IMG/VR virus record: IMGVR_UViG_3300029268_000005
Source of the DNA: an uncultured virus (IMG/VR IMGVR_UViG_3300029268_000005)
Lineage: Duplodnaviria; Heunggongvirae; Uroviricota; Caudoviricetes
DNA: 64,000 bases
Direction: 5' to 3' (one strand)
Each line of letters starts with the position of its first letter. The first letter of the stretch is position 1. This document shows, piece after piece, positions 28,359 through 53,042 of the stretch. The translations under genes and the position numbers were made by a program. The notes under the pieces were generated by a model. The model was not told the DNA's origin. It saw only the letters and a list, made by a program, of their open reading frames with translations, and ran no database searches.

Positions 28359-28664
28359 TTACGTTATGGCTGTTTCGGGATACAGCCAGTTTCCAGTTAA
28401 CCAGGCTCGTTCGAACTCAATCGCTTGTGCATAGCGCACGAACGGTCGCCCGGCTTCGTCCCGCTGAGTCACGGGACCTCCAACGGTTCTCAAGTCCACT
28501 TCCCACAACGCACCAGTGTCAGAGTTCAACACTGGCATGATCAGAGTTCGTAGCGCGACCACGTCAACCCGCTGTTCAGGTTGTATGGCGCGCGACAACA
28601 AATCAGAAAGGCCATCGTCATAGATGGCCCGAATACCCTGCGGCGTGATGACTAGCTTGGCCAC
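28359..28664 (-). CDS. Conserved hypothetical of the Ycf46/DUF1257 cluster type
   Basis: LVITPQG..AIYDD...WEVDL..VGGP...PF....A...E..WL pattern recalled from such clusters. Confidence 0.55.
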   Translation of the reverse strand: MAKLVITPQGIRAIYDDGLSDLLSRAIQPEQRVDVVALRTLIMPVLNSDTGALWEVDLRTVGGPVTQRDEAGRPFVRYAQAIEFERAWLTGNWLYPETAIT

Positions 28665-29059
28665 TAGCCGCCGTAGCTCATCTTCGTCTGGTTATAGTCG
28701 CTCTTCCACTGCCAGTTGTCCTTAACGTAGCAGCGGAATTGGTCATCATCGAGCTCGATGATTTCATTGCAGGCCATCTTCAACATGTCGATTGCCTCTT
28801 CGTACTCTCGGGCGTAGCACTGTGGCGTACGAATGCTGAAGTACGTCGTCGGCGGCCAGTGAGAACCGGCGCGCAATGATTGATCGTCATGATCCAAGAT
28901 CTTCTGCATTTCGTCGTGACGTTGCATAAACGCCGCCTGGGCTGCCTTGGCGTATTTCTGCAACGTTTCTTCGAAGTCGGCAATATGCTTTGCCAGGTTG
29001 GCCTGCACAATCGCCAACAGATCGTCCTTCTTAACCTGAATCACTAAGTCGCTGCGCAT
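28664..29059 (-). CDS. Hypothetical phage protein (131 aa)
   Basis: Coupled ORF. Confidence 0.65.
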   Translation of the reverse strand: MRSDLVIQVKKDDLLAIVQANLAKHIADFEETLQKYAKAAQAAFMQRHDEMQKILDHDDQSLRAGSHWPPTTYFSIRTPQCYAREYEEAIDMLKMACNEIIELDDDQFRCYVKDNWQWKSDYNQTKMSYGG

Positions 29060-30321
29060 GTCACCTCCTGCATGTACTCACGAAGGATTTGCCGTTTTAC
29101 CGCCGGACGCGGCACGGCCAGAACTGCCAAGTTGTCGATCAACTGCTGTGCACCTGAGAGTGTCCGGTGTCTCAGTGAATCCTCGTCACGTAGTCGCTGC
29201 GCCAGATCCATATCCGGCCCAACAACTTGTTCAATGGCGTCATAAGCCTCTGCCAATTCACCCTGACCAAGACCGACGGCGTCTAACAGCTCGCGGCCCT
29301 CGCGAATAACATCATGGATGTTACTCACCACGGTGTCACGAAACACCTTGGGCTTATCATCCTGCAGAACCCGAGTTGCGTACTCTTCAGATGACAGACG
29401 AACAGTCGAACGTGTGCCATCGCTATTAACCACTGTCAGGTAGCGATAGCGACTTGTTCTTCGCTCATGTACCACCTCGAACTGGCCGTCCAGCAATTTC
29501 CTAGCCGATAGACGTTCAGCCAAATGGCCTAGATGCTCGGCTAATGTGCGAGCAATCCGTTGCTCCTCGTGCTGCACTACCATCTCTAATCGACGCTTCT
29601 GCTCTTCCAGCTGCCGTTTGGCTGTGGCTGGATCCAGACGCATTAGATAGCTGGGTACATCGGCGGTGCTGCCGTACGTCCATGTAATGGCAGCTCGTTC
29701 GACCGGATCGAACATGTAGTCAGCCTCTTTGTAGAGACGTGACCCTAATGTTTTGCGCCGTTCTGTTCGTATCGCTGGCATGACGTCACGCAGCTCGACC
29801 AGCGTCCTCTCAAACGGTATGACCAGCGCTGTCATGCCTTCGTCGTACTGCTTGTGTTTGCCCATAGGCAGCAGTCGTCGACCTGCCTCTGGATACCATA
29901 GTGTCATACCCAGATGAAATGCCTGAATAGCCGACCGTGCGGCCATGACAGATGCGATCTTCGGGTGCTTTGAGTCGAGCAGCTGCTTCGCAAAGATTAT
30001 CGACTCAGCAGATGCGTCGAAAAGCTTTGCGACCTGCGCACGCTGTGCTGCCGTGACTTGGCGCTGGCCGGGCAAGAAGCTGCGAGACAGCTTGACTGTC
30101 TCATACTGCTGTGACAACCGCTCAGCAGTGATCTGAATTCGCGCCTGATCGAACTTAAGCTCTAGCTGTTCCTTAGCTGGTTTCTTTTTGCTGCGGCTCT
30201 TAACCGGCACGGGCCCGCCTCCTATGTGACCCAAGTACTTCATTGAGATGAGCTTCATGTCTATCTGCGTAGTACTTGCCGGAATATTCAGCGGCAAGGC
30301 ACTGTCCAGAAGCCCACTCAC
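29044..30321 (-). CDS. Helical hypothetical, DUF3150-like; start uncertain
   Basis: KQLLDSKHP, MTLWYPEAGRRLL, LGSRLYKEADY; directly downstream of the AAA ATPase. Confidence 0.55.
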   Translation of the reverse strand: MSGLLDSALPLNIPASTTQIDMKLISMKYLGHIGGGPVPVKSRSKKKPAKEQLELKFDQARIQITAERLSQQYETVKLSRSFLPGQRQVTAAQRAQVAKLFDASAESIIFAKQLLDSKHPKIASVMAARSAIQAFHLGMTLWYPEAGRRLLPMGKHKQYDEGMTALVIPFERTLVELRDVMPAIRTERRKTLGSRLYKEADYMFDPVERAAITWTYGSTADVPSYLMRLDPATAKRQLEEQKRRLEMVVQHEEQRIARTLAEHLGHLAERLSARKLLDGQFEVVHERRTSRYRYLTVVNSDGTRSTVRLSSEEYATRVLQDDKPKVFRDTVVSNIHDVIREGRELLDAVGLGQGELAEAYDAIEQVVGPDMDLAQRLRDEDSLRHRTLSGAQQLIDNLAVLAVPRPAVKRQILREYMQEVTCAAT

Positions 30322-31789
30322 GTAATCGTGTCAGCTGGTCATGGTAACGATCAACGATCCTCGGCTGCATATCACCAAACTCTGCCACAGATACACCGGT
30401 TAACTTGGCTACGTGGCAGCAGTTTTCAATTTCAGCTCCAGTCCACTCTGCGTCATTTGGCAGCTGTATCTTAACTGCCTCTTCGACAGTCTTGGCATGC
30501 TTGTAGTTCATTAGATGCAGATTCCATATCTCCCGCTTCGCGGCAGTGCCAGGAAGATCGAGAAAGAATACTGCGTCTACACGGCCTGGACGACTAAACT
30601 CCACAGGCATAGAAGACATATCGTTGCATGTAGCGATGAAGTAGATATCGCTCTCATGGTCGTTAAGCCACTTCAGTATCTCGCCAAACAATCGTGCGGC
30701 GACGCCTGAGTCTGTTGACGCAGATGCCTGACCGCCGGCAAGACTTTTCTCGACTTCGTCGCAGAACAATATGGCTGGTGCCATCTTGTCCGCTATCTGT
30801 AACGCTTGTCGTACCTGACGCTCTGTCTGGCCAACAAGCGAGCCCATCATCGCACCAACGTCCAACACCAGTGTAGGACGCCCGGTCTCGTTACCAAGCG
30901 CCTTAGCGAATAGCGACTTACCGACGCCGGAAAGACCTAACAACAGTAAGCCTTTGGCTTTTCTATCGTCTGTATCCCTGGGTGTCAGGCACGTCTTGCT
31001 AAACTGCTTGAGAAAATTCAAGCCACCAATCTTCGAGAACGATTCCTTGCCCTTATAGACTGACAGACCAGGAACGCCCTTCTTCAACTCAGCTGCCTTT
31101 TCGTCCCACAAAATACCTGGCTGCACCGTGCGTGCTCGTTTTAGCGACAGCGCAATTGCGCCTTCGGCCTGGAAACGGCTCAGACCGGCCATTGAAGCTA
31201 GTGCGGCTTTGGTGACATTGTTGTCCGAAGGCAACTCAGAAGGCTCACAAACAGCCGTCATGATTTCATGCAGCTGTGCACTGTCTGGCAGCTCATGCTC
31301 GATAACGCTGACTATGTCCTTGATCTCAGGCGGTATGGCCAGCACAGCCGACAAAATGATGACGTACTGCCTACGGACGGCCTTACCCTCCATTATCTGA
31401 TGGTAGAGCATCTGATAATGAAGTGGCTGCGGCAGAACGCCATGGGCGTTATGTAGCACCATGATTGCCGGGCGCTCGTACTTTACGTCCTTCGGATCTG
31501 TGCCGCGCACAACGTTCATATCCTGCAACACAGCAATGGCCTGCTGCAGCCTGGTATCAGGCGGTGTTCCTGGTCGATTGCCAGCAGGCATAAGCACAGC
31601 CTTGCCGTATTTGTCGTCCAGAACACGTGTGCCACGTTCGGCATCCCAGATGCCAAAGAACCATTTGCGGCGAATACACAGCTGCTGGATATCGTCTATG
31701 GCTGCAGCTTGTTCGCCTGCATTCGATACAACATAAAGGCCAGTGAAGCCTGTGATGACTCGTTCTTCGATAGAGTCTTGAAAGGTCAC
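30200..31789 (-). CDS. AAA+ ATPase, Ycf46-like
   Basis: IGGL..LK, Walker A GLSGVGKS, Walker B ILFCDEVEK, SRH ATCND...PVEFSRPGRVD, WTGAEIE. Confidence 0.9.
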   Translation of the reverse strand: MTFQDSIEERVITGFTGLYVVSNAGEQAAAIDDIQQLCIRRKWFFGIWDAERGTRVLDDKYGKAVLMPAGNRPGTPPDTRLQQAIAVLQDMNVVRGTDPKDVKYERPAIMVLHNAHGVLPQPLHYQMLYHQIMEGKAVRRQYVIILSAVLAIPPEIKDIVSVIEHELPDSAQLHEIMTAVCEPSELPSDNNVTKAALASMAGLSRFQAEGAIALSLKRARTVQPGILWDEKAAELKKGVPGLSVYKGKESFSKIGGLNFLKQFSKTCLTPRDTDDRKAKGLLLLGLSGVGKSLFAKALGNETGRPTLVLDVGAMMGSLVGQTERQVRQALQIADKMAPAILFCDEVEKSLAGGQASASTDSGVAARLFGEILKWLNDHESDIYFIATCNDMSSMPVEFSRPGRVDAVFFLDLPGTAAKREIWNLHLMNYKHAKTVEEAVKIQLPNDAEWTGAEIENCCHVAKLTGVSVAEFGDMQPRIVDRYHDQLTRLREWASGQCLAAEYSGKYYADRHEAHLNEVLGSHRRRARAG

Positions 31790-39375: not shown

Positions 39376-40755
39376 TCAATCCAACGTTTGGATCTTATCG
39401 CCGGTCCAACGCAGATCATTAACTTCGTGCTCTTCAGCCGTCGGACCTCGACCGAATACGACACACGGAACACCCAGCCTGTCTGCAATCAATTTAGGCA
39501 AGTCGCTAACATGGACGACTGCCAGGTGTGGTTCTTGCATAGCTACTTCCTCGCACAACGCCGACAACCGTACGAGGTTACCATCACGATGTAGATGAAC
39601 CTTACCCGGCTGTCTGTACTGGTAGCACACCGACGTGGTATCAGTACGAAATTGATCCAGGCAATTGACGGCGACACCGTGCAACTGTCCGTCGAGAATC
39701 CATTTGGAGTAACGTAGCAGTGGCAAGTCCAGCCAGCCGCAACGTAACTTACCTTGCCACGGATTCTCGACATTGCAAGGATCACTTATGCTGTCACTAA
39801 GCTCTGCACTGTAAGATGGCAAAGGCCCATCGCCGTGTCGGGTTGTGTAACATCTTGTCACACCGATTACAGAATATAGCGTGCCAGGCTTCATTGCTAT
39901 CATCGAAAGTGCCCTGGCAGGCGTAACGTCCGACCACGTCGTATGCGGATGAAAGCCATAACGCTCATCCAGCAACAGTCCCTGAGAACCCTCGAATATG
40001 ACGGTGCTACAATTTGGAAGACCGGGCTGTTGTCTTAGCTTGCATGCTATCGGCCACAGACGATGCAATACGGCATCGGCAGGTTCATCCAATTGCTCAC
40101 GCCATTCCCGCACAGGCGTCGGAAGACTTCCGGTTGCGGGCAGCACCTGCCTGGCCAACTCCAGACATCTGAGTCGTATGCCTTCAATTGACGTCAACAG
40201 CCAGTCTCGATTTTTCGGCCGATCAAACTGTGTCAGACACAGTTTAAGACCGTCGAGCTCAAGTCTTCTGGCTTCGCCGACGCCCATCCCACATGATCCG
40301 TGACGGACTGCTCGTCGTGATTCGATAATTCGATTCAGCGACCTGTGGTATGGCAGTATGATGCCACAATTCGGGTCGACAGACAGCATGCTGAACGGGT
40401 CTGCGATTTTGAGGGATTCGAGATGCCTAGCCTCCTCCTGCATAGCGCCCAGGTCCAGCCACATGCCGCTAGCCAGGTGCGTGTGGATGCCGTCCAACGT
40501 GCACGAACCAAACTGTGAGAAGACATGTGAGCTACCGTCGCTGAGTTGTACTCGATGCCCTGCCTGAGGACCACCGCTGAAGCGCACAACAAGATCAGCT
40601 CCGATCCTACGGCCTATCGACTGAGTGACAACGCCTTTTCCCTCATCACCAAAGCCCAGGCCAATAACGACTACAGCACGCAACATAATGTTATCCTTGT
40701 TAAGGCGCATAGAAGAAACGAGCTGGTCCGCCCTGCGTAGAACGGACCAGCTCAT
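39376..40755 (-). CDS. purA: Adenylosuccinate synthetase-like protein (divergent PurA paralog)
   Basis: GLGFGDEGKG, RFSGGPQAGH, HGSCGMGVGE, FEGSQGLLLD, TRHGDGP. Confidence 0.85.
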   Translation of the reverse strand: MSWSVLRRADQLVSSMRLNKDNIMLRAVVVIGLGFGDEGKGVVTQSIGRRIGADLVVRFSGGPQAGHRVQLSDGSSHVFSQFGSCTLDGIHTHLASGMWLDLGAMQEEARHLESLKIADPFSMLSVDPNCGIILPYHRSLNRIIESRRAVRHGSCGMGVGEARRLELDGLKLCLTQFDRPKNRDWLLTSIEGIRLRCLELARQVLPATGSLPTPVREWREQLDEPADAVLHRLWPIACKLRQQPGLPNCSTVIFEGSQGLLLDERYGFHPHTTWSDVTPARALSMIAMKPGTLYSVIGVTRCYTTRHGDGPLPSYSAELSDSISDPCNVENPWQGKLRCGWLDLPLLRYSKWILDGQLHGVAVNCLDQFRTDTTSVCYQYRQPGKVHLHRDGNLVRLSALCEEVAMQEPHLAVVHVSDLPKLIADRLGVPCVVFGRGPTAEEHEVNDLRWTGDKIQTLD

Positions 40756-40774: not shown

Positions 40775-42106
40775 CTACACCGGTGGCGTTGCCACAGCGT
40801 ACAGCTGCTGTAGCGACAAACCAGGATACGCCGACGGGAACGACGGCGGATCAATCAGATGCGTATGACCAGGCAGCGTCAAAGCGTGTGGCGGCGGCGG
40901 TTCCTGACCATAGTAGTTCAGGTACATGACCCTGTGCACGTGCGACAGGAACAATTTGCCAACCCACCGCATGGCTCGGCGGTTGATATGTCCCAGAGGC
41001 AACATGCACGGCCCGCAACCGGGCGTACCAACCTCCAACGTAGGTTCGGTTATGCCGCTAGCCACGTCAGCACGGTACTTAGCGGCAGCCTCCAAGCTGA
41101 CGCATCCCGTGTACCACTTGTAGGCGTCCGTGCTCACACCATAATCCTTATCACGCAGCTGTTTGGCAGCTTCAGCTACGTACCTTCCGGCAAGGTTGTT
41201 CGCCCACTCGTATTCCTTACGAGAGTAGTAGAACTTGCCGTAGAAGTCCGAATCCCGATGCGCGTTCTTGATGAAGCTCGGGACAGCCTTGCCGAGGACC
41301 AGCGTCTTGGCAAAGAGGCTGTAGGGCCTCAACGAAAAGACGCTGATGAGGTGCTCCTTCGTCAGCTTCTTCGGATACTTTCCGCCGCGCTGCCAGGCGA
41401 TCAATCGACGGATGTTCTCTTCCTTGCGATTGGTTTGCCTGCACAGCTCAGTGAGCACCGCATCCTTATCGCCGCCGACAGCCTCGATAACGTTGGTCAC
41501 AAGCTTAGTGGCTTTGACCTTACCGAGATGAACGACATTCGGATTGCAACCGGCAAATGTGTAGAAGTTTCCACACGTCGGCGCACATCGAACATCGAAC
41601 GTAGCCAAGGTTCCGGCAGCGATCTTGGGGCCGATTCCGGTCCAGCTCATGAGACAACGACTGACAGTGTACTGCTTGGCGAACTCATGCAGCACATGTG
41701 TCAGGTCGTTCTCCATTCGCTTCAAGTTGTCGTGGTACCACGAGTGTGGTGCCGACGGCCGATCAGTCTTCTTGTACTGATTGATCTGATGGCCGATGCC
41801 AACGCGCATCTTCTGGTGGCCGTAAAGCCAGCGAACCAGACTCTGCGCCTGAAAGTGAGGCAGCAGTCGTCCAAAAGATCGCATCTGCTTGGACAACTTT
41901 TGCATCAGCTCGACATCGGCCGACATCTCGTCTTCAACGAAGAACTGTGTCGGATCTTCCGCCGCCAGTGCGTCGTTGACCGGCGGAACAGGCTCAGCTG
42001 CTTTTTCGACGGAAGCGTTCACAGCGGATTGCAAGGCCTCAGAGATGGTGTCGGTCTCTACCAACTTGGCCGGAATGACTTTTTGCATTTTCGCTTTGCG
42101 TGCCAT
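40775..42106 (-). CDS. IS110/IS116 C-terminal (Nop-like) domain protein without a recognisable N-terminal RuvC
   Basis: LMSWTGIGPKIAAG (HhH), FYTFAGCNP, YGKFYYSRK, HINRRAMR...KLFLSH. Confidence 0.7.
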   Translation of the reverse strand: MARKAKMQKVIPAKLVETDTISEALQSAVNASVEKAAEPVPPVNDALAAEDPTQFFVEDEMSADVELMQKLSKQMRSFGRLLPHFQAQSLVRWLYGHQKMRVGIGHQINQYKKTDRPSAPHSWYHDNLKRMENDLTHVLHEFAKQYTVSRCLMSWTGIGPKIAAGTLATFDVRCAPTCGNFYTFAGCNPNVVHLGKVKATKLVTNVIEAVGGDKDAVLTELCRQTNRKEENIRRLIAWQRGGKYPKKLTKEHLISVFSLRPYSLFAKTLVLGKAVPSFIKNAHRDSDFYGKFYYSRKEYEWANNLAGRYVAEAAKQLRDKDYGVSTDAYKWYTGCVSLEAAAKYRADVASGITEPTLEVGTPGCGPCMLPLGHINRRAMRWVGKLFLSHVHRVMYLNYYGQEPPPPHALTLPGHTHLIDPPSFPSAYPGLSLQQLYAVATPPV

Positions 42107-43958: not shown

Positions 43959-44996
43959 TTACATCTCCAACGCCAGATACTTTTTGGGCCCGAACACAGA
44001 TTCGAGCACTGTGTAGTACTCGTCACATAAGGCCCAGGCTGATTGAGGACGCATGGCTGGTTGAGTGAACAGGCAGCTCATCCAGAATCTGATAAGCGTC
44101 GGCGGCACCTGAGATCCAAAAGATATCGGTGGCTTACCGTCCCAGCCCGATAACCAAGCAATGGTGGCGATGGCTAGATATATGTCTAGCGCCGGACTCG
44201 CAGGCTGAGCCAGAGATAACTCTGGCAACGGATACCAGGGTTTGAAGGCAGCAGGCACAGTGACTAGAGGCTTACCTATAGACACCGAATGCGTCCAACC
44301 CAGCAAGATAGCGCCATGATTCTCTGCATGGAACATGATGTGCGGCGGCAATACAGCGCCGTGTGCCAAGCCCTGTTTGTGCACATAGCCTAACCCCTGC
44401 AATAGACGACCACACATCCAAGCCAAATGTCTGGCGTCAAGCACAGGGTGTTTGTCCTTGATAGCCGCTGCCGAATAGAATCCGTCGCGAGCTTTGAAGA
44501 CACTGACGCGACGCTGCACATTGTTATCGTCCTTGATGAGAAAATCGGCCACCGGCTGCGGAAAGCACTGCAGATAGAAGCCAGATGCGTTCTCAGCCAG
44601 CAAGGACTTAATGGTCTGCATCTCCTGCTGCAGCATGTCGTTGCCGTCCTTTGTCACCGACATTTTGACGACAACAGGAATGGTGCTGCCGTCTGCCTGC
44701 GAGCAATCTGCTGCATACACGTCAGAAACATCACCACGCCCGAGTCTTGTCTTCAACGTGTAGGTAGCGCCTTTGGCGCGAAGGACTGGTTCTGGTTCAC
44801 CGGCACTCAGTTGTTGCCAGTATGCTTGCAGTATCGTAAAGATACGTGTTGCATATTCCTTATCCTGCTCTTCCTGAAACCGGTCAGGATGGCAAAGCAG
44901 GCTGAATTCGCGATAGGTCTTATCTGGTTGATCACCAAATAAGACCTTGGCGCTAACAGCGCTGTTCAGTAGTGCCTCTAGTTCTAATATTGTCAT
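43959..44996 (-). CDS. J-domain-like (HPD) + Ser/Thr kinase-like fusion, probably a pseudokinase
   Basis: YREFSLLCHPDRF; LGRGDVSDVY; VVVK; HGAVLPPHI lacks the HRD Asp. Confidence 0.75.
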   Translation of the reverse strand: MTILELEALLNSAVSAKVLFGDQPDKTYREFSLLCHPDRFQEEQDKEYATRIFTILQAYWQQLSAGEPEPVLRAKGATYTLKTRLGRGDVSDVYAADCSQADGSTIPVVVKMSVTKDGNDMLQQEMQTIKSLLAENASGFYLQCFPQPVADFLIKDDNNVQRRVSVFKARDGFYSAAAIKDKHPVLDARHLAWMCGRLLQGLGYVHKQGLAHGAVLPPHIMFHAENHGAILLGWTHSVSIGKPLVTVPAAFKPWYPLPELSLAQPASPALDIYLAIATIAWLSGWDGKPPISFGSQVPPTLIRFWMSCLFTQPAMRPQSAWALCDEYYTVLESVFGPKKYLALEM

Positions 44997-45003
44997 TCCT
45001 TGC

Positions 45004-45522
45004 TCAATTGGCAGAAAAGGGTTGGACTGATTTAACGGAAAAGCTTGTGTTGTCGTCTAGGCCAGCGCACAGCAGCTTGCCAAACGCATTAGCCAGTTCT
45101 GTACCCTGGACATGGCCGGTGCCACAGATGAAGACACCGTAGGGTCTGTTACGGAAATTAGCTTCGATATCGACTGGCTCTGTTGTGGCTTCGGACAACA
45201 TCATCGATACCTTGTCCATTGGGCAACGCTCTCTGTTCAAAACCACCAACAGAGCGAGAGGCGGGTTCAATTCTACGTCCAGCTGTTCTTGCGACAGGCG
45301 AATAACCTGCATGAATGGACGACCTGCCTCGTCGTACAAGTCTGTGTCATCAGGGAACAACTCAGACTCGACCTCAATCATCTTGCGCACAGCCTTGACG
45401 TTATGCAAAAGCATACAGTACAAGGTCTGGTCACATACGAGTTGCAAAACATGCTCCCGCAAGACATCAATGTCGTTACAGGAGACGCAACGAACAACAC
45501 CACTGAGTTCGAACCAGCGCAT
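45004..45522 (-). CDS. Hypothetical protein
   Basis: ORF tiling. Confidence 0.55.
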   Translation of the reverse strand: MRWFELSGVVRCVSCNDIDVLREHVLQLVCDQTLYCMLLHNVKAVRKMIEVESELFPDDTDLYDEAGRPFMQVIRLSQEQLDVELNPPLALLVVLNRERCPMDKVSMMLSEATTEPVDIEANFRNRPYGVFICGTGHVQGTELANAFGKLLCAGLDDNTSFSVKSVQPFSAN

Positions 45523-46409
45523 TACTTAGTCCCCATATCGAACAAGACCTTGCGAAGGTAGTCTGTATAGCTGCAACGACGAGTGCTTATTAGGCTCTGA
45601 ATGGCCTGCTTGTTAATCCAGCCCAGTCTGAAGGCTATCTCCTCAACACAACCAATCAATAGCCCTTGGCGTTGCTGCACTGTTTGTACGAACGTACTTG
45701 CTTGTAGCAGTGCATCCGCTGTGCCTGTATCGAACCACGCCGAACCTCGGCCAAGTGGCTCAACTCGCAATGCTCCGTCATGCATGTAGGACTTGTTAAG
45801 GTCTGTGATCTCTAGCTCATTACGTGCCGATGGTACAAGCTTTTCGGCACGCGATGTTGCAGTGTTGTCGTAGAAATACAAACCCGTCACTGCCAAAAAC
45901 GACTTCGGTAAGATGGGCTTTTCTTCAATAGAGATCGGCCAGCCCTTAGCATCTAACTCGACAACTCCGTAGCGTTGCGGGTCTTGCACTGGTTGTGACA
46001 AAACCACAGCGCCGTCTACGCAGAATGCGATGTTACGTAGACGACGCTGTAGCCCTTGCCCGTAAAAGATGTTGTCGCCAAGTATCAACGCAACGCGGCT
46101 GTTGTTGATGAACTCCTTGCCGATGATCAACGCCTGCGCAATTCCAGCTGGCTGCGCTTGTACTGCGTAGCTGATGTTGAGGCCAAACTGAGCGCCAGTA
46201 TCCAACAGTAGTTGAAAGGAAACGCTATCACGAGGTGTGCTGATAATCAGGATGTCCCGTATGCCGGCCAACATCAAGGTAGACAGCGGATAGTAGATGA
46301 GCGGCTTGTCGTACACTGGCAACAACTGCTTGCTCACCACCTCTGTCATAGGCCACAGTCGCGTCCCTGCTCCGCCCGCCAGAATGATGCCCTTTGTTGT
46401 CATTGCCAC
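45522..46409 (-). CDS. rmlA: Glucose-1-phosphate thymidylyltransferase
   Basis: GIILAGGAGTRLWP..SKQLLPVYDKP, LILGDNIFYG, EEKP, RNELEITD, WFDTGT. Confidence 0.96.
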   Translation of the reverse strand: MAMTTKGIILAGGAGTRLWPMTEVVSKQLLPVYDKPLIYYPLSTLMLAGIRDILIISTPRDSVSFQLLLDTGAQFGLNISYAVQAQPAGIAQALIIGKEFINNSRVALILGDNIFYGQGLQRRLRNIAFCVDGAVVLSQPVQDPQRYGVVELDAKGWPISIEEKPILPKSFLAVTGLYFYDNTATSRAEKLVPSARNELEITDLNKSYMHDGALRVEPLGRGSAWFDTGTADALLQASTFVQTVQQRQGLLIGCVEEIAFRLGWINKQAIQSLISTRRCSYTDYLRKVLFDMGTK

Positions 46410-46420
46410 TGTTTTGCTCC

Positions 46421-47494
46421 CTACGTTGAAGTACTAAGCCCTAATCTACGTCCGTCGTACTGCTGTCTGGCAGCTTTCACCCAGTCCTTATTGTCCGCAT
46501 ACCACTCCAGGGTTGTTATGAGGCCGATGCCGTGCGGTATGCTGTTGTTCCATCCTAGCTCGTACATTGCAGCACTGTTCATCGAGTATTCAAAGTCGTG
46601 ACCGGGTCTGTCCTCCACAAAGGTAAGCAGATTCTTGTGCGGAGTTCCGAACCAGTCGCGCCTATCTAGCAGCTTGCATATGTCATTAAGCAAGCTGTAA
46701 TTTGTCCTGTTGTACTGTGCGCCGATGTTGTAGTGTGTGCCTGGAACACCTTTCTCCAGCAATAGCTGTAATGCTGTGCAGTGGTCATAGACATGCAGCC
46801 ATTCGCGTCGTTGTAGGCCGGAGCCGTACACAGGTATTTTCTTGTTCTCCAGGCCATTACAAATCGCCATCGGTATCAGCTTCTCCGGAAACTGATACGG
46901 GCCATAAGTATTGGCTCCGTGCGTAACGATTGTCGGCAGCCCGTACGTCTTGAAAAAGGCATCTGCCAGATGATCACCAGCAGCCTTAGAGGCCGAGTAT
47001 GGCGATCCCGTGTGGTAGATGTCTCGTGACTCCGCTGGTGGCAAGGTATACCTGCTACCAAAGACCTCGTCTGTAGATACCTGAACAAACCTGAACTCAG
47101 GCAGTTCCTTACTGTATCGTTGCCAGTACCGTTTGACCTCCGTCAGCAGAGCTGCCAGATCAACAACGTTTGTTTCGATAAACGGCGACATGTCATCAAT
47201 CGATCTGTCGACATGCGTCTCTGCTGCAAAGTTGATGACAGCCGTTGGCCTATAGGTGTCAAAGATCGTTTCTACTAACGTCTGCTTACCGATAGTGCCC
47301 TTTACAACGTGCAGTCTAGCGTCTGCACTAAGCCGTTGCACCGTGATCGGATTACAGGCATAGGTCATTGCGTCTAACACAACGACTCTGTGCGAGTCGT
47401 CGTGACGACTCAACCAGTACTGGATGAAGTTCGAGCCTATGAAGCCCAAGCCTCCAGTCACGAATAGCGTTTTGGCTTTACTAGGTTCGGACAT
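46421..47494 (-). CDS. rmlB: dTDP-glucose 4,6-dehydratase
   Basis: VTGGLGFIGSN, FAAETHVDRSI, VSTDEV, PYSASKA, YQFPEKLIP, DRPGHD. Confidence 0.96.
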   Translation of the reverse strand: MSEPSKAKTLFVTGGLGFIGSNFIQYWLSRHDDSHRVVVLDAMTYACNPITVQRLSADARLHVVKGTIGKQTLVETIFDTYRPTAVINFAAETHVDRSIDDMSPFIETNVVDLAALLTEVKRYWQRYSKELPEFRFVQVSTDEVFGSRYTLPPAESRDIYHTGSPYSASKAAGDHLADAFFKTYGLPTIVTHGANTYGPYQFPEKLIPMAICNGLENKKIPVYGSGLQRREWLHVYDHCTALQLLLEKGVPGTHYNIGAQYNRTNYSLLNDICKLLDRRDWFGTPHKNLLTFVEDRPGHDFEYSMNSAAMYELGWNNSIPHGIGLITTLEWYADNKDWVKAARQQYDGRRLGLSTST

Positions 47495-47495
47495 G

Positions 47496-47511
47496 TAATT
47501 AGCGCTAATTA
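47496..47511. repeat. Palindrome copy 4
   Basis: TAATTAGCGCTAATTA between the upstream stop codon and the rmlB ATG. Confidence 0.9.
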
Positions 47512-48171
47512 CGTTTTGTATTGGACGTGGTTATCTGACGGCAACAGATCGGCCAGTTCTTCTGCGCACTGGTCAAGCCACAGATCCTCAGGCGTTTCGG
47601 GTTCGATTGACAATCGACCCTGTTCGAAGTGGTCATCGTCGTTACGCTGTATAGCCATCGCTACAGCTTCCTCGACCTCATCAGCCGAGAACATATAGAA
47701 CAGCCAGTCGATTTGCTCTTCTATTGTCATAGCGCTTAGGCTGTCAACAAACTGCTGACAAAGTTCATCAGCTGCCAGATCGATGTCATCCTGGCAGACG
47801 CCAAGTCTGATCATCTCGGCGATCATCGTGTTTCGGATGTTTGTGTTTTCATCATCCGTAACGTCAGGAGACTGCTCCTCGTCCTCGATGACATCTTCGT
47901 CCTCGACAACGACATCTCCGGACACTGCAGACGGCATAGTCAGACGCGAGGCCAAATCTTGTGCGTATTTGGCCAACCAGCCGTTTGTGAAGACAGTTGG
48001 TGCCTCGGCTGTTTCTGAGGCCTCGGTCATCACCAGCTGCTCAACACGACCAGCTGGAAGCCAATCACGCATAAGAGCGTACAAGAACATAACCAACGGA
48101 CGTTTGTCTTTGACGGAACCCGACCGAGAACGCAGCGCAGACAGCTCGACTTGTACCTGCTTAGAATCCAT
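47509..48171 (-). CDS. Acidic hypothetical protein (220 aa)
   Basis: ORF tiling. Confidence 0.65.
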   Translation of the reverse strand: MDSKQVQVELSALRSRSGSVKDKRPLVMFLYALMRDWLPAGRVEQLVMTEASETAEAPTVFTNGWLAKYAQDLASRLTMPSAVSGDVVVEDEDVIEDEEQSPDVTDDENTNIRNTMIAEMIRLGVCQDDIDLAADELCQQFVDSLSAMTIEEQIDWLFYMFSADEVEEAVAMAIQRNDDDHFEQGRLSIEPETPEDLWLDQCAEELADLLPSDNHVQYKT

Positions 48172-48263: not shown

Positions 48264-49016
48264 CTAGTGCGCAGAAGACGCCAATGCCGGTTCGGTATCG
48301 TCGTCCGTGTCTTCATCATCATTGTCGTTCTCGACGGGGCCTTCGCCCAAGCTGTCGTCCAACAACGTCATAAGCAGGTCGGGACTCAGCGGAATGTCAC
48401 GCAAGTAGCGCGTGAGCTGATGTACCATCATGCTGGCAGTGATGTTGGCCGCGTAGATGGTGCTACGCGCCGTGCAACGACCCTGCTCAGCCTCTTCAGC
48501 CGCGAACAGCGTTGACTCATAGCGCGTGCGATCCATCGGCGTGCTGGTCAGCACGCGCAACGTTTCGCCGAGCATACGGCCATCGATCATGGTGACATTG
48601 AACTGCTTGCAGCTCTCGTGCAGAAGTTCACGAATCTCAATGCTGTCCACACACGTAAACATGACGTGGATGGGCTTCTTGTTCGTACGAGCATTGAGAA
48701 GCAATACGTCACTGAAGCGGCCATCAACAGTGGCCACAGACAGCGAAGGATCCAAAGCTATCATATCGGAGGCCGTGGCTACAACCTTCTTCTGCTGCAG
48801 CTGATCGTACCGATAGCCCTGCGTTGTCACATTGGTTTCCTCGACAATGTCGAAGTCCACCAACATGACGTTAGAAGCGCCGATAGCCGCCAGCTGCAAT
48901 GCAACTGAGCGACCGACAGCGCCAACGCCAACTATCATGATGTTCGTCTCAAGCAGCTTGTCATGCGGCACGAGCCCGGCTTGACGCTCAAAACGATCTT
49001 TTGCCTTTGTCGTCAT
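48264..49016 (-). CDS. E1-like ThiF/MoeB adenylyltransferase
   Basis: RFERQ, GVGAVG, DFDIVEETNVTTQG, KV, CVDSIEIR, IDGRM, candidate catalytic Cys in GRCTAR. Confidence 0.92.
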   Translation of the reverse strand: MTTKAKDRFERQAGLVPHDKLLETNIMIVGVGAVGRSVALQLAAIGASNVMLVDFDIVEETNVTTQGYRYDQLQQKKVVATASDMIALDPSLSVATVDGRFSDVLLLNARTNKKPIHVMFTCVDSIEIRELLHESCKQFNVTMIDGRMLGETLRVLTSTPMDRTRYESTLFAAEEAEQGRCTARSTIYAANITASMMVHQLTRYLRDIPLSPDLLMTLLDDSLGEGPVENDNDDEDTDDDTEPALASSAH

Positions 49017-49049
49017 CAGAAATCCCTCATTCCTTAGGGGTTGTACAAG

Positions 49050-50462
49050 TTAGTCAATGGCCAGCGTTGCGGCACGGTCAAGTGCTTCGTTCATCTGCAC
49101 ATCTTCAACAACGGCAATGTCGTCAGGCTTTGGTGCCTCTACGTCTGCCGGTGCAACCTTGTCGTCAAACTGCTTGGTGTTCCAAATACCGTACATGGCC
49201 AACCAAGCTTCGGAAGTTCTAGACGGCACTTGCATGCCGTGTATGCGTGCCCACTCCTCGATGGCGCTGAGTTCGTAAGCACTGAGCCCAAGGCTCCACG
49301 CTCCGCGATTACCCGGCCACAGTGCCGGCTTTGTCTCATTACCGGTCACACGTGCGGAAGGCTGGTTTCGCCAGTCACTGACGAGACCTGATGAGCCGGA
49401 CGTAGGCTGACCGGTAACGAAATTCATAGCCGGTGTGGTCGAGGGAATTGCACTAACAGCGGCATGAGCCGATACGGGAGTAGGCGGGATAATTGCGTGG
49501 CCCGTATAGCCGGACACCATTGGTTCGGCAGCCCGTGAACGTGCAGCCTCTGCCCAGGCGTCATGTCCATGAGCCGTCTGCGAGCTGTAGGACGACTGAT
49601 AGCCATAGTTGCCTTGGTTAACGCTATGATCGTGATAGTGCCGTGTGTAGTACGAAGACATACCGTCAGTGCTGTAATTCGTTGGATACTGCACTACCGA
49701 CGCGCACTTCGTAACACAGCGAGTGTACTCTGCCTGCCACGCGGCAACATCCTGGCTGCCACCAGTGGCCGACCAGTCAACCGACACAGGCAGCTCCGTA
49801 GAGAAGCCAGGGCCGACGTTGAAGCGCAATCGCGCATACGTTTCATGGCCACGACCGACAACCATCATGACGCCCCAGTGACACGGCCCGAGACATTCAA
49901 GGAACGTAGTCTCATCCGTGCCACTCGGAGTCACGCCACTGCCTGGATGCGTATGGATCCAGATACGGCCACAACGCTCAGGGCCAATGCCCTCAGCCCC
50001 GCAGTCGAGAAGATAGTCGGCCACGGCGTCATCATCAAACTTGGTCGAAGCCATGCTGACTCGCTGCTTGACCAGTCGTACCTCGCGGATCAACAACAAC
50101 TGTGTAGCATCCGAAATACCCCACATGCCGACTTCGTCAGATGACGAGTGAAGCATGTGTAGCAACTTGGCCCAAGCGCTAGGTGCAAAACGCAAACCGG
50201 CCAACTTCGGCCAGTCATTACTAGTGCCCATAGGCATATAGGTGCTTGATGCAGCTGCGATAGACGGGCCTGCAAAACCCGTCACAGTTCGAGGCTGAAC
50301 AAGCGGCCCGTTGTTGGTTTGCCGGATGTTTGTGACCTTATTGATGATGCCGTCCTCTTTGGTTTTGTTGTTTCGCACTCTGACTGTCGCATCGCTAAAC
50401 CGCGTCTTCTTCCTTGACATAGCCATCCTCTGCAGGAGATTGAGTAATACCTTGAACATCAT
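49050..50462 (-). CDS. JAB/MPN metalloprotease with a long low-complexity C-terminus
   Basis: EVGMWG, then WIHTHPG....PSGTDE (HxH..S..D). Confidence 0.88.
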   Translation of the reverse strand: MMFKVLLNLLQRMAMSRKKTRFSDATVRVRNNKTKEDGIINKVTNIRQTNNGPLVQPRTVTGFAGPSIAAASSTYMPMGTSNDWPKLAGLRFAPSAWAKLLHMLHSSSDEVGMWGISDATQLLLIREVRLVKQRVSMASTKFDDDAVADYLLDCGAEGIGPERCGRIWIHTHPGSGVTPSGTDETTFLECLGPCHWGVMMVVGRGHETYARLRFNVGPGFSTELPVSVDWSATGGSQDVAAWQAEYTRCVTKCASVVQYPTNYSTDGMSSYYTRHYHDHSVNQGNYGYQSSYSSQTAHGHDAWAEAARSRAAEPMVSGYTGHAIIPPTPVSAHAAVSAIPSTTPAMNFVTGQPTSGSSGLVSDWRNQPSARVTGNETKPALWPGNRGAWSLGLSAYELSAIEEWARIHGMQVPSRTSEAWLAMYGIWNTKQFDDKVAPADVEAPKPDDIAVVEDVQMNEALDRAATLAID

Positions 50463-51832
50463 ACGCTCGCGGTTGAAGCTACTGCTGTCGGCAAGCAGTC
50501 AGGGCAGAAATAGAATCCCTCGTGCAATACCAGGTCAGATCTTAATCGTGATGCTTCGCAAGCAGCACAGATCATCATGCCACGCGGCGCTGCGGGCTGA
50601 GTGGTACCACGCATCCGATCAGTAACAGGCGCTGTGGCGATAGTTGGTGCAACGGGCACCGCAGGTGTCGGATAACCAATTGGCCGTAGTACCGGTGTCG
50701 GTGATGCCGGTGGAAGGATTTGCCACGTAACCTCGGACGCAGGGGCTGGCGTGGCTGGGACAGGTATTACGCTGGCAACCTGAGCAATCTGTGCTTCACG
50801 AGCTGCTCTTCGTGCAGCAGCCTCTGCTTGCAACACCCTGTAGCAAGACGGGCACTTGCATCCACTACGCGTGACGATGACATCAGCACGAGCCACAGCA
50901 CAGCCACACTTAGAGCAAGTGTGTATACAGCCTTGGCAATATCGATGCCCATCAACTTCTCGCAAGCCAGCTGCGGCATGAGTGGCGCAGAATACTTTGT
51001 TGCAGTTTTCACCTTCACAGCGAACAGCACAGCCGCCACAAAGATGGGTGCTGCACGTTACGCAACGACTATGCTCAGCCGGTACACGTCCACGGCAACC
51101 GGAACAACGCTCACCAAGCCACTGATCCAAGTTGCGATATGCCTGACCACGGGCGTAGGTGTGCAACACAGTGTCGGCTATTTCGACGATATCACCAAAG
51201 CGCAGCTCAGACGCGGCGCCGTTGAATGCCGTCAGGCCTTCGCCAAAACACAGACGATTGTGATTAACGTGCGGGTGTATGAGTCCATGCGACTCCACAG
51301 GCCAACGATCCTCGTCAGAAGTGTAGATGGACACATGTCCTCCAGGTGTAACTACAATCCACAGTTCGCCCATGACGTACTTCTCGCTAGCCACGGTAAA
51401 CGAGATTTCGTCTGTTCGAACTGCTATGCCTTTCATAGGCACGTTCCAAAATACGCGATTAGGCCTAGCTGAACGTAAGGCCAGCAGATCGTGAACTATG
51501 TCGACGCACGTAGCCTGAAACGTGCTACTGGTTTGTTGTTTGATAAATGGATTGCCACCACGCCACGTGGACACATGGCTGATGACATTCGGCAACTTGT
51601 CAAGCAGCGCCTTCATGACGACAGGCACATCGCCGCTTGGATTACGTCGGCCAAATCGGCCAAGAATGCTTCGTGCCTCGGCGCCCAGCCGAGTGAGCTT
51701 TAGCAACGCTATTACGTCGTTAGTCTGCAATTTGAACTGACGACAACCGGCAGCCACCGCGCGCGTTGCAAATCGTACGATCAATGATTCGGTAAGCGGC
51801 ACATAATCCGTGGGCCGCACATAGTCACTCAT
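50459..51832 (-). CDS. Prokaryotic E2-like (UBC) domain plus Cys-rich Zn-binding region
   Basis: HPHVNHNRLCFGEG matching the E2 HPN..G.IC signature; multiple CxxC pairs. Confidence 0.75.
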   Translation of the reverse strand: MSDYVRPTDYVPLTESLIVRFATRAVAAGCRQFKLQTNDVIALLKLTRLGAEARSILGRFGRRNPSGDVPVVMKALLDKLPNVISHVSTWRGGNPFIKQQTSSTFQATCVDIVHDLLALRSARPNRVFWNVPMKGIAVRTDEISFTVASEKYVMGELWIVVTPGGHVSIYTSDEDRWPVESHGLIHPHVNHNRLCFGEGLTAFNGAASELRFGDIVEIADTVLHTYARGQAYRNLDQWLGERCSGCRGRVPAEHSRCVTCSTHLCGGCAVRCEGENCNKVFCATHAAAGLREVDGHRYCQGCIHTCSKCGCAVARADVIVTRSGCKCPSCYRVLQAEAAARRAAREAQIAQVASVIPVPATPAPASEVTWQILPPASPTPVLRPIGYPTPAVPVAPTIATAPVTDRMRGTTQPAAPRGMMICAACEASRLRSDLVLHEGFYFCPDCLPTAVASTASV

Positions 51833-51861
51833 CAGTTGACTCCTTTTTATTGCACAAACAC

Positions 51862-51901
51862 AAACACCCTGGGTGGCAAAATTACCACCCAGGGTGTTTT
51901 T
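51862..51901. terminator. Strong hairpin between the Ubl and E2 genes (terminator/attenuator)
   Basis: AAACACCCTGGGTGG / CCACCCAGGGTGTTT 15-bp inverted repeat. Confidence 0.7.
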
Positions 51902-51951
51902 AGGTTAGATCAACAGGTCCGCAAAATGCGGACTGGTCTTACGACCCTGGC

Positions 51952-52239
51952 TTAGCAGGCGCCTTCGACCTTCGTCGGGGTAATGCTGATACGGTCGCCG
52001 TTCTGCAACACGAAGCCGGCTTCGATCGGGTTTTCGGGGCCACCGAAGGTGACCTCGGCGCGACGGATCCGCTTCATGTAGTTGGCGGGGATCTGTCGGT
52101 CGCCGATCTGGGTGGCGAAGAAGGTGGCGATGGTCGTGCCTTCGGGGATGGAAATCCAGTTGGCATAGCCTTCGCCGCCGTTGTTGACGAACAGGACGCG
52201 GATGGCCGGGGTGGAAGCGCTGTTGATGTCGTTGGACAT
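51952..52239 (-). CDS. Ubiquitin-like (beta-grasp, ThiS/MoaD-like) protein ending KVEGAC
   Basis: IRVLFVNN.G.G...I..PEGTTI..F...LQNGDRISITPTKVEG; first gene of the E2-JAB-E1 operon. Confidence 0.8.
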   Translation of the reverse strand: MSNDINSASTPAIRVLFVNNGGEGYANWISIPEGTTIATFFATQIGDRQIPANYMKRIRRAEVTFGGPENPIEAGFVLQNGDRISITPTKVEGAC

Positions 52240-52562: not shown

Positions 52563-53042
52563 TCACTGATCGTAGACAACAACGGGACTTGCCTTTATGG
52601 CCAAGACAACGAACGGACAGAACTTTCTAGCTGTTTCAAAATCTCGTACTTCGTGTGAGATACGACAGCCTACTGGCGTATCACCAACACCACTTGCATG
52701 CTCGGCGACTATTCGACCGGAGCAGTTCCAACAGTCTGGCAAGGCATCAGGCATATACAGCTCCTTCGTTGTACTGTCTGCAAAAGCCAACAACGTGGCG
52801 GCCTTAATGCCCGCTGCCAAACTTTTTATGTAGCGTTCCAATCGTAGTGCGTCCCTGTGAGACATGCTACGGCTGGCAACAAGTAGATGGACCGGTCGCC
52901 TACTGCGTGTGTATTTGGCGCCGTGTCCAGAATTGTGTGTCATAACTCGCGCAGAGACATCCGTACTGATTCCACAGTAGCGTGTACCGTCACTGCAGAC
53001 TAGTAGATATACGCGCCATCGTTTATCGATGGGGCAGTTCAA
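52563..53042 (-). CDS. GIY-YIG nuclease family protein
   Basis: VYLLVCSDGTRYCGISTD...R...HNSG.GAKYTRSRRPV. Confidence 0.88.
   Translation of the reverse strand: MNCPIDKRWRVYLLVCSDGTRYCGISTDVSARVMTHNSGHGAKYTRSRRPVHLLVASRSMSHRDALRLERYIKSLAAGIKAATLLAFADSTTKELYMPDALPDCWNCSGRIVAEHASGVGDTPVGCRISHEVRDFETARKFCPFVVLAIKASPVVVYDQ

Follow-up and report, generated by a model that had tools for sequence, protein, structure and literature searches.

A 64,000-nt stretch of DNA (hereafter the window) from the uncultured Caudoviricetes virus IMGVR_UViG_3300029268_000005 of the IMG/VR database carries an operon of four genes, coding for a ubiquitin-like protein (Ubl), an E2-like conjugating enzyme fused to a zinc-finger array, a JAB/JAMM peptidase and a ThiF-type activating enzyme (E1). 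We consider it likely that this is a genuine Ubl-conjugation pathway of a jumbo phage and a member of a distinct, unnamed family borne mostly by phages and prophages. That the phage has its own protein-tagging pathway had been proposed in an earlier model-made description without database searches (the sequence-only reading), and we keep this as the best interpretation of the evidence presented below.

The four open reading frames (ORFs) are all found on the minus strand, within positions 48264–52239 and in the order Ubl-E2-JAB-E1 (Table 1). The ATG of the JAB gene overlaps the stop codon of the E2 gene (ATGA). The sequence-only reading had described four co-oriented genes and a terminator; every ORF lies where it had been placed, and the cluster is closed by a strong hairpin with a U-run. 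An element missing from that description is a second hairpin, located between the Ubl and E2 genes, whose stability was equalled by none of 200 shuffled sequences (0/200) and which has the AAGGAG ribosome-binding site of the E2 gene on its 3' side. This hairpin probably attenuates or stabilises the transcript, keeping the Ubl message above the enzyme message. The support for both hairpins is their own fold energy and not the terminator scan, given that generic scans compared with shuffled sequences found no enrichment of either terminators (6 sites vs. 5.2) or promoters (5 vs. 5.2). The operon is nevertheless beyond chance, because homologues of the four genes keep the same order in 56 of 80 related loci.

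These loci were retrieved with a 7-sequence sub-alignment of the family (A2), the full 114-sequence alignment being too diverse for a locus search. Species-representative genomes yielded 93 relatives, and all locus counts are based on the 80 that were retained. By record title 78 of the 80 belong to Planctomycetota, and the other two are bins labelled Thiobacillus and Thermodesulfobacteriota. Homologues of the Ubl were present in 74 loci, of the E2 in 78, of the JAB in 75 and of the E1 in 64. Apart from the 56 loci with the complete order Ubl>E2>JAB>E1, we found 11 with Ubl>E2>JAB, four with Ubl>E2, six with E2>JAB>E1 and three odd ones, mostly at contig ends. The best identities to the window proteins were 49% (E1), 46% (JAB), 43% (Ubl) and 30% (E2). 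Several genomes contained 2–3 copies of the cassette, and there are cultured carriers, namely Planctomicrobium sp. SH527 (two copies) and Stieleria tagensis TO1_6.

The first gene had been read as a beta-grasp protein ending in KVEG-AC, and its AlphaFold2 (AF2) model agrees with this. Foldseek ranks 1–50 were occupied by beta-grasp proteins or domains throughout (probability 0.89–1.0, E 4e-3 to 4e-2), among them SUMO, MoaD (6jbz_B), Caldiarchaeum ubiquitin (6fj7/6fno), ubiquitin, ISG15 and BilA (8tyx_A). Along the alignment of the family (A3, 35 sequences) the residues N19, N20, G22, G24, A26, R57, R60, G93 and A94 were invariant, and compared to its relatives the window protein has a 12-aa N-terminal extension and a 9-aa insertion. 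G93 (51961–51963) and A94 (51958–51960) are followed here by a one-residue tail, C95, and across the family by anything from 0 to >30 variable residues. The invariance of these two positions next to variable tails is the signature of a processed modifier, and the predicted fold, the small C-terminal residue and the removable tail all point to a ubiquitin-like beta-grasp modifier. In seven of the 74 family members the sequence stops precisely after EGA. Because A94 is also invariant, either every form needs a cut between Gly and Ala or Ala is the reactive end. The mature end could thus be Gly93, after a G|A cut, or Ala94 itself. PMC10097602 offers a precedent for an Ala end, the cGAS of CBASS (an anti-phage signalling system that relies on cyclic oligonucleotides) being conjugated via a C-terminal Gly or Ala.

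The family of the E2-like protein is large. Residues 1–245, used as the query of an exhaustive phmmer search, gave 295 cluster representatives at E ≤ 1e-3 (50%-identity clusters), and one ESM Atlas cluster of the family has 2,546 members. Among the 150 matches listed, those that looked full-length (112 at 280–450 aa) were mostly ~330–360 aa long and displayed VTHPHVxxxxLCEGEGR followed by a median of 10 CxxC pairs. The window protein itself has 24 Cys, among them 8 CxxC pairs. In alignment A1 (114 sequences) H186, P187, C195, D214, L223 and W238 were invariant, and H188, G197 and the cysteines C243/246/257/260/265/268/272/277 were conserved at ≥90%. The AF2 model, with a predicted local distance difference test (pLDDT) of 83.4, consists of a helix, a beta-meander, the HPH loop, Cys195 and two helices. 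When it was compared with 48,161 chains by VIA-align, the best 50 matches included 15 E2/UEV entries (Z 5.6–6.8), each spanning 109–121 residues of domain 100–240, while the remaining rows covered only the N-terminal helical hairpin. UBE2S (1zdn) reached Z 6.6 over 119 aa, Ube2K 6.3, UbcH10 6.2 and the UEV of TSG101 6.1–6.8; UBE2F, UbcH5b, UBE2D2, Ubc12, Ubc13 and UFC1 were matched as well. In ESM Atlas we obtained Prok-E2_D at 0.80 and, at TM 0.82 to the E2 domain, a 258-aa cluster of mainly viral members, both as leads only. Of the fusion of an E2-like domain to a multi-CxxC region that had been described before, the candidate active-site motif and the modest E2/UEV fold matches thus hold, but a significant Foldseek match was not obtained.

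The zinc-finger region (232–305) was modelled with pLDDT 87–95 over residues 240–310. It resembled the Rim2 zinc finger (Z 5.0 over 57 residues) and PHD/FYVE domains (Z 3.8–4.7), and by profile there were weak matches to B-box and to the TRIM21 RING (E 0.008–0.02). From these weak FYVE/PHD/RING/B-box-like fold matches we propose that the Cys-rich array may be a built-in E3 or adaptor. Two relatives show other architectures: P0085 (502 aa) has the E2-like domain, a zinc-finger/Cys-containing linker and a JAB domain in a single polypeptide, and P0024 (733 aa) has two HPH..C modules in tandem. A further phmmer match, P0002 (4,941 aa, 11 short stretches), was discarded as a repeat artefact.

A complex between the E2 domain (residues 100–245) and the Ubl was predicted with a score of 0.73, compared to 0.01 for the best control. 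As a reference, 116 of 157 solved pairs attained the mark used for this score, compared with 2 of 215 mismatched ones. The contact agreement between runs was ≥88% and the partner pLDDT ≥79. On the E2 side the predicted interface includes H188, C195–G199, D214 and L223, and on the Ubl side residues 18–28 (the invariant NN.G.G.A loop) and the tail 85–95. The prediction puts the Ubl tail at Cys195, which supports binding but is no proof of it.

The other two enzymes had been identified as a JAB protease and a ThiF/E1 with a candidate Cys, and both assignments were borne out. The complete JAMM motif E..HxHx7Sx2D is kept in the JAB family: E110, H170, H172, S180 and D183 were each ≥90% conserved over 73 homologues, and R91 and W97 are conserved N-terminal to the core. 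By its motif the protein qualifies as a JAMM/MPN+ metallopeptidase, even if the Pfam Prok-JAB match (E 0.007) fell under its cut-off and phmmer against the PDB sequences gave 0 matches at E ≤ 1. It is 470 aa long vs. a family median of 283 aa; residues 256–470 form a phage-specific, low-complexity C-terminal extension (~215 aa) rich in S/A/G/T/Y. The E1 matched Pfam ThiF (PF00899) with E 1.3e-27 (96.9 bits vs. a cut-off of 28.1) and has a GxGxxG motif (G30–G35), an Arg finger (R8/R11), D124 and the candidate catalytic Cys181 (48474–48476). Among 64 homologues the Arg finger, GxGxxG and D124 were conserved and C181 was found in 94%. It is a single domain with an acidic, D/E-rich C-terminal tail, and its closest solved structures are MoeB, ThiF and UBA5. 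In a quick tree the window E1, which shares up to 49% identity with planctomycetal cassette E1s, was a deep, unresolved long branch inside the cassette clade, from which no direction of transfer was drawn.

Distant ThiF-like E1 proteins annotated as "thiamine biosynthesis" were seen in 80 cultured-phage records (e.g., Flavobacterium phage FpV4 and Xanthomonas phage PhiXhv-15). In the quick tree the E1s of the FpV4 type and of the Xanthomonas phages fell on a very long branch outside the cassette clade, and when the 4 kb around these genes were scanned with the family profiles, no E2, JAB or Ubl was detected. A gene with a weak Prok-JAB match lies next to the one in FpV4. These E1s may represent a different phage E1/JAB system.

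The source contig is a phage of at least 185 kb, i.e., a jumbo phage. Bases 1–58368 of the window are 99.97% identical to the final 58 kb of a 185,248-bp IMG/VR record with an estimated completeness of 89% (CheckV). On this record there are genes for the large terminase (phrog_675, 1e-31), for a baseplate wedge subunit and a tail fibre, for a DNA polymerase, and for a DnaB-like helicase, a UvsX-like recombinase and SbcC. The phage origin that had been assumed is thereby sustained by the terminase, baseplate and DNA polymerase genes, and the alternative of a host chromosome was not borne out. One strand carries 161 of 174 long ORFs, and the window contains a ligase, three tRNAs and giant ORFs resembling the beta subunits of multisubunit RNA polymerases. 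The E2-like protein was also present on a 209,573-bp contig.

A survey of phage and host contigs had been put forward as a check, and it located the complete cassette in three viral records and, in the same order, in 56 of the 80 genome loci, with neighbours that include integrases, Mu-like genes and a terminase. Recurrently flanking the cassette are large serine recombinases and tyrosine integrases as well as a PD-(D/E)XK exonuclease, and a block of gene families that we designate F7-F9-F10-F5-F3-F8 recurs upstream of the Ubl gene. Two further IMG/VR viral contigs carry the whole cassette plus F5 and F3. The first one (69.5 kb, GC 58%) is classed as a provirus and reads integrase-F7-F9-F10-F5-F3-F8-F11-Ubl-E2-JAB-E1; the second (167.6 kb, GC 33%, estimated to be 100% complete) has Ubl-E2-JAB-E1, four genes and then F5-x-F3. 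In a Planctomycetaceae metagenome-assembled genome the block (locus L099, G006:C1:485001-503204) is located just downstream of Mu-like transposase/transposition genes (phrog_310 7e-46, phrog_296). Nearby, within ~20 kb, the same genome has repressors and a regulator of the ImmA type as well as a Ku-like gene and a terminase (phrog_675, 1.9e-60), a context that suggests a transposable prophage. Locus L044 was grouped with L099 in this Mu-like context. The integrases, Mu-like genes, terminase and viral contigs indicate that the family is largely carried by phages and prophages. The cassette is no one-off capture but belongs to a large, mostly prophage-borne family of Planctomycetota. The retrieval of relatives depended on the query. 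The viral-contig locus search with the single E2 or E1 protein found no relatives, while alignment A2 found the two contigs mentioned; the E2 protein retrieved nothing but itself when it was the query of a word-index homologue search. blastn/tblastn searches with the operon and the E2 protein gave no match in 50,697 phage records, so that at this sensitivity no cultured phage holds the E2-like gene.

The description as a complete operon was right in that the four genes are all there, but it understated the system, which elsewhere has recurrent AAA ATPase (F5) and DUF3150-like (F3) partners. F5 has an ATPase domain of the classical AAA clade (Pfam AAA PF00004, 3e-22; phrog_8638 over its full length, 2e-67). 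Against the PDB the best matches were AFG2A (8.7e-37), VAT (5.9e-36) and p97 (5e-34), with AFG2/VAT/p97/Cdc48 D2 domains down to 1e-31 and also PAN, although the scores were under the NCBIfam CDC48 and PAN subfamily cut-offs. Its motifs are Walker A GVGKS, Walker B DE, RPGR in the second region of homology and a pore loop SLVG with no aromatic residue, and there is only one ATPase domain vs. the tandem D1–D2 of Cdc48. The window F5 and its homologues at cassette loci share 41.6% identity (E 5e-126). Of the 80 loci, 22 have F5 upstream of the cassette and 32 have F3; when only the 51 loci with ≥4.5 kb of sequence on the upstream side are counted, the numbers are 19 and 24. Both accompany the cassette in all three viral records, and F3 directly follows F5 save for one intervening gene in the 167.6-kb contig. 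Only one of 26 F3 members scanned matched Pfam DUF3150 (the L095 copy, 2.8e-23), the F3 profile retrieved nothing meaningful from the PDB sequences, and its ESM Atlas feature neighbours (0.93–0.94, mostly viral, DUF3150 in 14–25% of members) are a lead only. F8 is linked weakly: its profile (13 members) matched the window ORF with 3.4e-07 and the L094 copy with 8.5e-37 (blastp 2.5e-06). The AAA/DUF3150 pair is a frequent, not obligatory, partner of the cassette, and judging by gene linkage it probably acts on tagged proteins by unfolding or extracting them.

From the folds, motifs, conservation, synteny and phage context that were computed, we infer the chemical steps, the targets and the biological role as follows. 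The JAMM peptidase would trim the pro-Ubl at Gly93-Ala94, leaving a mature end at Gly93 or Ala94. A dimeric ThiF-type E1 would adenylate this C-terminus and then load it onto Cys181, from where the Ubl would be passed to Cys195 of the UBC-like domain, with HPH in the role of the eukaryotic HPN. The fused FYVE/PHD/RING-like array would act as a built-in E3, either choosing the target or promoting discharge, and the JAB could also remove the mark. The hairpin after the Ubl gene would keep the modifier message in excess over those of the enzymes, and the Cdc48-like AAA ATPase with the DUF3150-like protein would process the tagged proteins. Such a cassette most likely serves in phage-host or phage-phage conflict. 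A bolder version of the model is a self-contained "tag-and-unfold" machine, in which Ubl tagging, JAMM removal and hand-over to a Cdc48/VAT-like unfoldase with a DUF3150 adaptor would dismantle host or rival-phage proteins; as a whole we regard it as speculative and rather unlikely. If true, viruses would have their own equivalent of the eukaryotic ubiquitin-p97 axis, and classical HPN-type E2 and RING-like modules might have a reservoir beyond eukaryotes and archaea.

A number of observations weigh against a conjugation pathway of this kind. Neither the E2-like protein nor the Ubl had a match in Pfam, NCBIfam, PADLOC or PHROG, and neither model had a Foldseek match in the PDB at E ≤ 0.001. 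In the case of the E2-like protein there was no match to Pfam UQ_con or Prok-E2_A-E at E ≤ 0.1, none of 30 family members scanned had a Pfam family, and profile A1 against the PDB sequences gave only weak zinc-finger matches and no E2. Every VIA-align Z was <8, a range that can reflect a common arrangement, and the catalytically dead UEV of TSG101 is among the best fold matches (Z 6.8, 121 residues). The AF2 model of the Ubl has a pLDDT of only 66, with residues 54–69 disordered. The complex score is the confidence of the model itself and the alignments behind it were made by us. The E1 has no separate Cys domain or ubiquitin-fold domain, and thus no modelled docking site for the transfer from E1 to E2. 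More than half of the loci lack the AAA/DUF3150 partners, which in the window are 18 kb away from the operon. Finally, the sequencing runs listed as containing the operon were nine DNA runs, from lake and freshwater metagenomes, and no RNA run was among them.

The weaknesses of the E2 assignment lead to the possibility that this domain is a non-catalytic adaptor of the UEV/RWD type, in a system that only adenylates or processes the Ubl for non-covalent signalling, for E1-only modification in the SAMP/Urm1 style or for attachment to something other than protein. Apart from the TSG101 match, such a system would be consistent with the minimal E1, as in E2-independent systems, and with the inactive E2-fold domains found in bacterial Ubl operons (as reported in PMC1779556). 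However, UEV/RWD domains do not have the Cys, whereas here all 114 sequences keep Cys195 and His186/Pro187, placed and spaced like the HPN..Cys of E2 enzymes, and the predicted interface sets the Ubl tail (85–95) against E2 residues 195–199. We hold this alternative to be improbable. Less credible still is a sulfur carrier of the ThiS/ThiF or MoaD/MoeB type, in which a thiocarboxylated Ubl would serve the modification of a phage cofactor, tRNA or nucleobase. It is true that by sequence ThiF and MoeB match the E1 best, that MoaD 6jbz_B is among the fold matches of the Ubl and that ThiF-like proteins carry a thiamine annotation in the 80 cultured-phage records mentioned above. However, the E1s of FpV4 and of the Xanthomonas phages lie outside the cassette clade with no E2 or Ubl detected within 4 kb, and the window E1 is far under every cut-off of the NCBIfam ThiF/MoeB/UbaA equivalogs (at best 72.7 bits vs. 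275). The Ubl ends in EGA(C) and not in GG, and an E2-like gene with an invariant Cys and a JAB are fixed partners in 56 of the 80 loci. The sequence-only reading had already remarked that there are no thiamine or molybdopterin genes nearby, and this agrees with our Pfam and PHROG scans of the neighbours, which include nucleotide-sugar genes, a kinase and a GIY-YIG protein but no rhodanese, ThiG/H, MoaE or cysteine desulfurase.

A different question is whom the pathway would serve. With the same chemistry, the operon could be a passenger anti-phage system by which the (pro)phage excludes competing phages, and no tool of host takeover. Bil systems tag a phage tail protein. According to PMC11601603 and PMC10557695, those bacterial Ubl systems that have been characterised (Bil, type II CBASS) act against phages, and a mobile operon that pairs conjugation with a JAB for deconjugation has been proposed to be selfish in the manner of restriction-modification (PMC3417536). 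Most carriers of the cassette are integrated, with serine/tyrosine integrases, Mu-like genes and repressors, one being an IMG/VR provirus, and several genomes hold 2–3 copies. On the other hand, no PADLOC model matched the Ubl, E2 or JAB, the E1 matched the CBASS E1-E2 models via the shared adenylation domain only, and the cassette is also found in two large phage genomes (≥185 kb and 167.6 kb) with no integrase in the examined regions. The results are compatible with defence and with host takeover alike, and we consider a passenger role possible, if somewhat unlikely. A conjugation pathway of the phage itself, as described at the beginning, remains our preferred interpretation.

The genes that surround the operon are listed in Table 1. 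Next to the Ubl gene, on its upstream side, the GIY-YIG protein could represent a homing endonuclease. Past the terminator there is a very acidic protein and, directly downstream of it, two nucleotide-sugar genes that look RmlA/RmlB-like by motif; a third epimerase-like gene is located at 26999–27931. The phrog_1211 protein might indicate a genome with 2-aminoadenine (Z-base) or might simply be a PurA homologue. The 2197-aa giant ORF matched several PHROGs of phage RNA-polymerase beta subunits together with thymidylate-synthase, ribonucleotide-reductase and PhoH families, and this mixture suggests intein-like insertions in the multisubunit RNA polymerase gene of a jumbo phage.

Table 1. Location of the operon, its functional elements and other features of the window.
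Feature	Position	Strand	Remarks
GIY-YIG nuclease-domain protein	52563-53042	-	Pfam 1.2e-12; immediately upstream of Ubl gene
Ubl gene	51952-52239	-	95 aa, ends ...TPTKVEG-AC
Hairpin between Ubl and E2 genes	51899-51862	-	17-bp stem, without U-run, -32.5 kcal/mol, z -5.75
E2-like/zinc-finger gene	50459-51832	-	457 aa
UBC-like domain of E2-like protein	51113-51535	-	residues ~100-240, after helical region 1-95
Candidate active-site motif of E2-like protein	51248-51277	-	HPH186-188 + Cys195; HPHVNHNRLCFGEG at residues 186-199
Multi-CxxC array of E2-like protein	50828-51112	-	residues 241-335, then Pro/Ala-rich linker
C-terminal CxxC..CxxC ribbon of E2-like protein	50489-50575	-	
JAB/JAMM peptidase gene	49050-50462	-	470 aa
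JAB core	49698-50201	-	residues ~88-255; E110
JAB zinc site	49914-49955	-	H170-x-H172-x7-S180-x2-D183: H170-T-H172-PGSGVTP-S180-GT-D183; HTHPGSGVTPSGTD
E1 (ThiF-type) gene	48264-49016	-	250 aa
Intrinsic terminator closing the operon	48244-48206	-	16-bp stem, 11 GC pairs, UUUUUCU tail, -34 kcal/mol, z -6.8
Very acidic protein	47509-48171	-	220 aa, no family match; just past operon terminator
Two nucleotide-sugar genes	45522-47494	-	phrog_3980 (4e-72); phrog_540 "nucleotide-sugar epimerase" (2e-72)
Protein kinase-like protein	43959-44996	-	345 aa; phrog_3043 9e-27; weak Pfam Pkinase; weak N-terminal DnaJ-like match
443-aa ORF	40775-42106	-	PHROG "transposase" family phrog_4285, 2.8e-13, inside phage genome
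459-aa protein	39376-40755	-	phrog_1211 "2-aminooxy adenylosuccinate synthetase", PurZ-type, 5e-70
F5, classical-clade AAA ATPase	30200-31789	-	529 aa; Cdc48/VAT/AFG2-like ATPase domain, N-terminal ~270 aa uncharacterised
F3, DUF3150-like helical protein	29044-30321	-	start probably M38 (30210); downstream of AAA gene
F8, small protein	28359-28664	-	101 aa; weakly conserved third member of AAA module
Giant ORF, 2197 aa	11426-18019	-	PHROG matches
Giant ORF, 1804 aa	4614-10028	-	RNA-polymerase beta-like

Among the known systems, Bil (BilABCD, types I and II) has the same four components and the same gene order Ubl-E2-JAB-E1, and its Ubl also has extra C-terminal residues, which are removed by the deubiquitinase (PMC10557695 and PMC11601603). 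BilA (8tyx_A) was moreover among the fold matches of our Ubl. The E2 is different, with an upstream His (HPH-x6-C) here and a C..E..H..H arrangement in type II BilB; residues C+6, C+8 and C+13 after Cys195 are T, F and S, and no CEHH pattern was seen in the stretch inspected (195–210). Here the E2 is fused to the multi-CxxC array, and the E1 is a 250-aa single domain, whereas the Bil E1 is multidomain with a mobile Cys domain. BilD and BilC were absent from the PDB sequence matches of the E1 and the JAB, respectively, and no PADLOC or NCBIfam model was matched as Bil, the presence of Bil models in PADLOC 2.0 not having been confirmed. The carriers differ too, being phages and prophages mostly of Planctomycetota.

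The PRTRC systems, which we take to be the same as the type 6d operons, were not matched by the NCBIfam models: PRTRC_ThiF gave 18 bits vs. a cut-off of 144.75, and there was no other PRTRC match at E ≤ 1. Type 6d itself is the nearest described layout, with a Ubl, a JAB, an E1, an E2 and a helical protein (Iyer, Burroughs and Aravind, 2006; PMC1779556). As far as the accessible part of that paper goes, the two have in common a separate small Ubl with a conserved C-terminal Gly next to JAB, E1 and E2-like genes, a fast-diverging helical protein as partner, with which the DUF3150-like F3 can be compared, an Arg and a Trp N-terminal to the JAB core (JAB-N; R91/W97 here) and a mobile, sporadic distribution. 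However, the 6d E2 is described there with no upstream His and a downstream His instead, while HPH is invariant here, the same part mentions no zinc-finger fusion or AAA partner, and the 6d carriers it lists are proteobacteria, Bacillus, cyanobacteria and Bacteroides.

Type II CBASS (Cap2/Cap3) and Bub share with our operon the E1, E2 and JAB chemistry in a context of conflict. Cap2, however, is an E2-E1 fusion that acts on a CD-NTase (a cGAS/DncV-like nucleotidyltransferase) and not on a beta-grasp Ubl; only the E1 part of the PADLOC E1-E2 models was matched here, and there is no CD-NTase in the operon. Bub has oxyester (Ser) chemistry, fused proteins and a DUF6527 protease (PMC11601596). In contrast, the genes of the window are separate and have the conserved Cys181 (E1) and Cys195 (E2), and none of the neighbours scanned matched DUF6527.

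The likeness to the ubiquitin cascade of eukaryotes and Caldiarchaeum lies in the order of the predicted steps, from E1 to an E2 of the HPN..Cys type and to a RING-like zinc finger, with JAMM-dependent processing, in the Caldiarchaeum structures 6fj7/6fno among the best fold matches of the Ubl, and in the genomic link to a Cdc48/PAN-like AAA ATPase. Here, however, a single polypeptide comprises both the E2 and the zinc-finger array, the Ubl terminates in EGA and not in GG, the E1 is minimal, Pfam UQ_con is unmatched and the assignment as RING is weak. Should the chemistry be confirmed, the system would provide a compact E2-E3 fusion, a means of finding out what is tagged by phages in a host or a rival, and new material for the debate on the origin of the ubiquitin-Cdc48 partnership, and the cultured carriers make the family experimentally accessible. 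Large as it is (295 representatives), it is named by no domain library that we searched, and in the literature on phage-encoded or planctomycetal Ubl/E2/JAB proteins we found neither the family nor a complete phage set described; Burroughs et al. (2011), on prokaryotic RING fingers, may overlap. Prokaryotic Ubl conjugation has been demonstrated so far in bacterial anti-phage systems (Bil, Bub and type II CBASS), whereas this set is on the side of the virus, the complete Ubl/E2/JAB/E1 genes being carried by a jumbo phage, by another large phage contig and by numerous planctomycetal proviruses, with an E2 that keeps a eukaryote-like HPH..Cys site, is fused to a RING/PHD/FYVE-like array and recurs together with a Cdc48-like ATPase.

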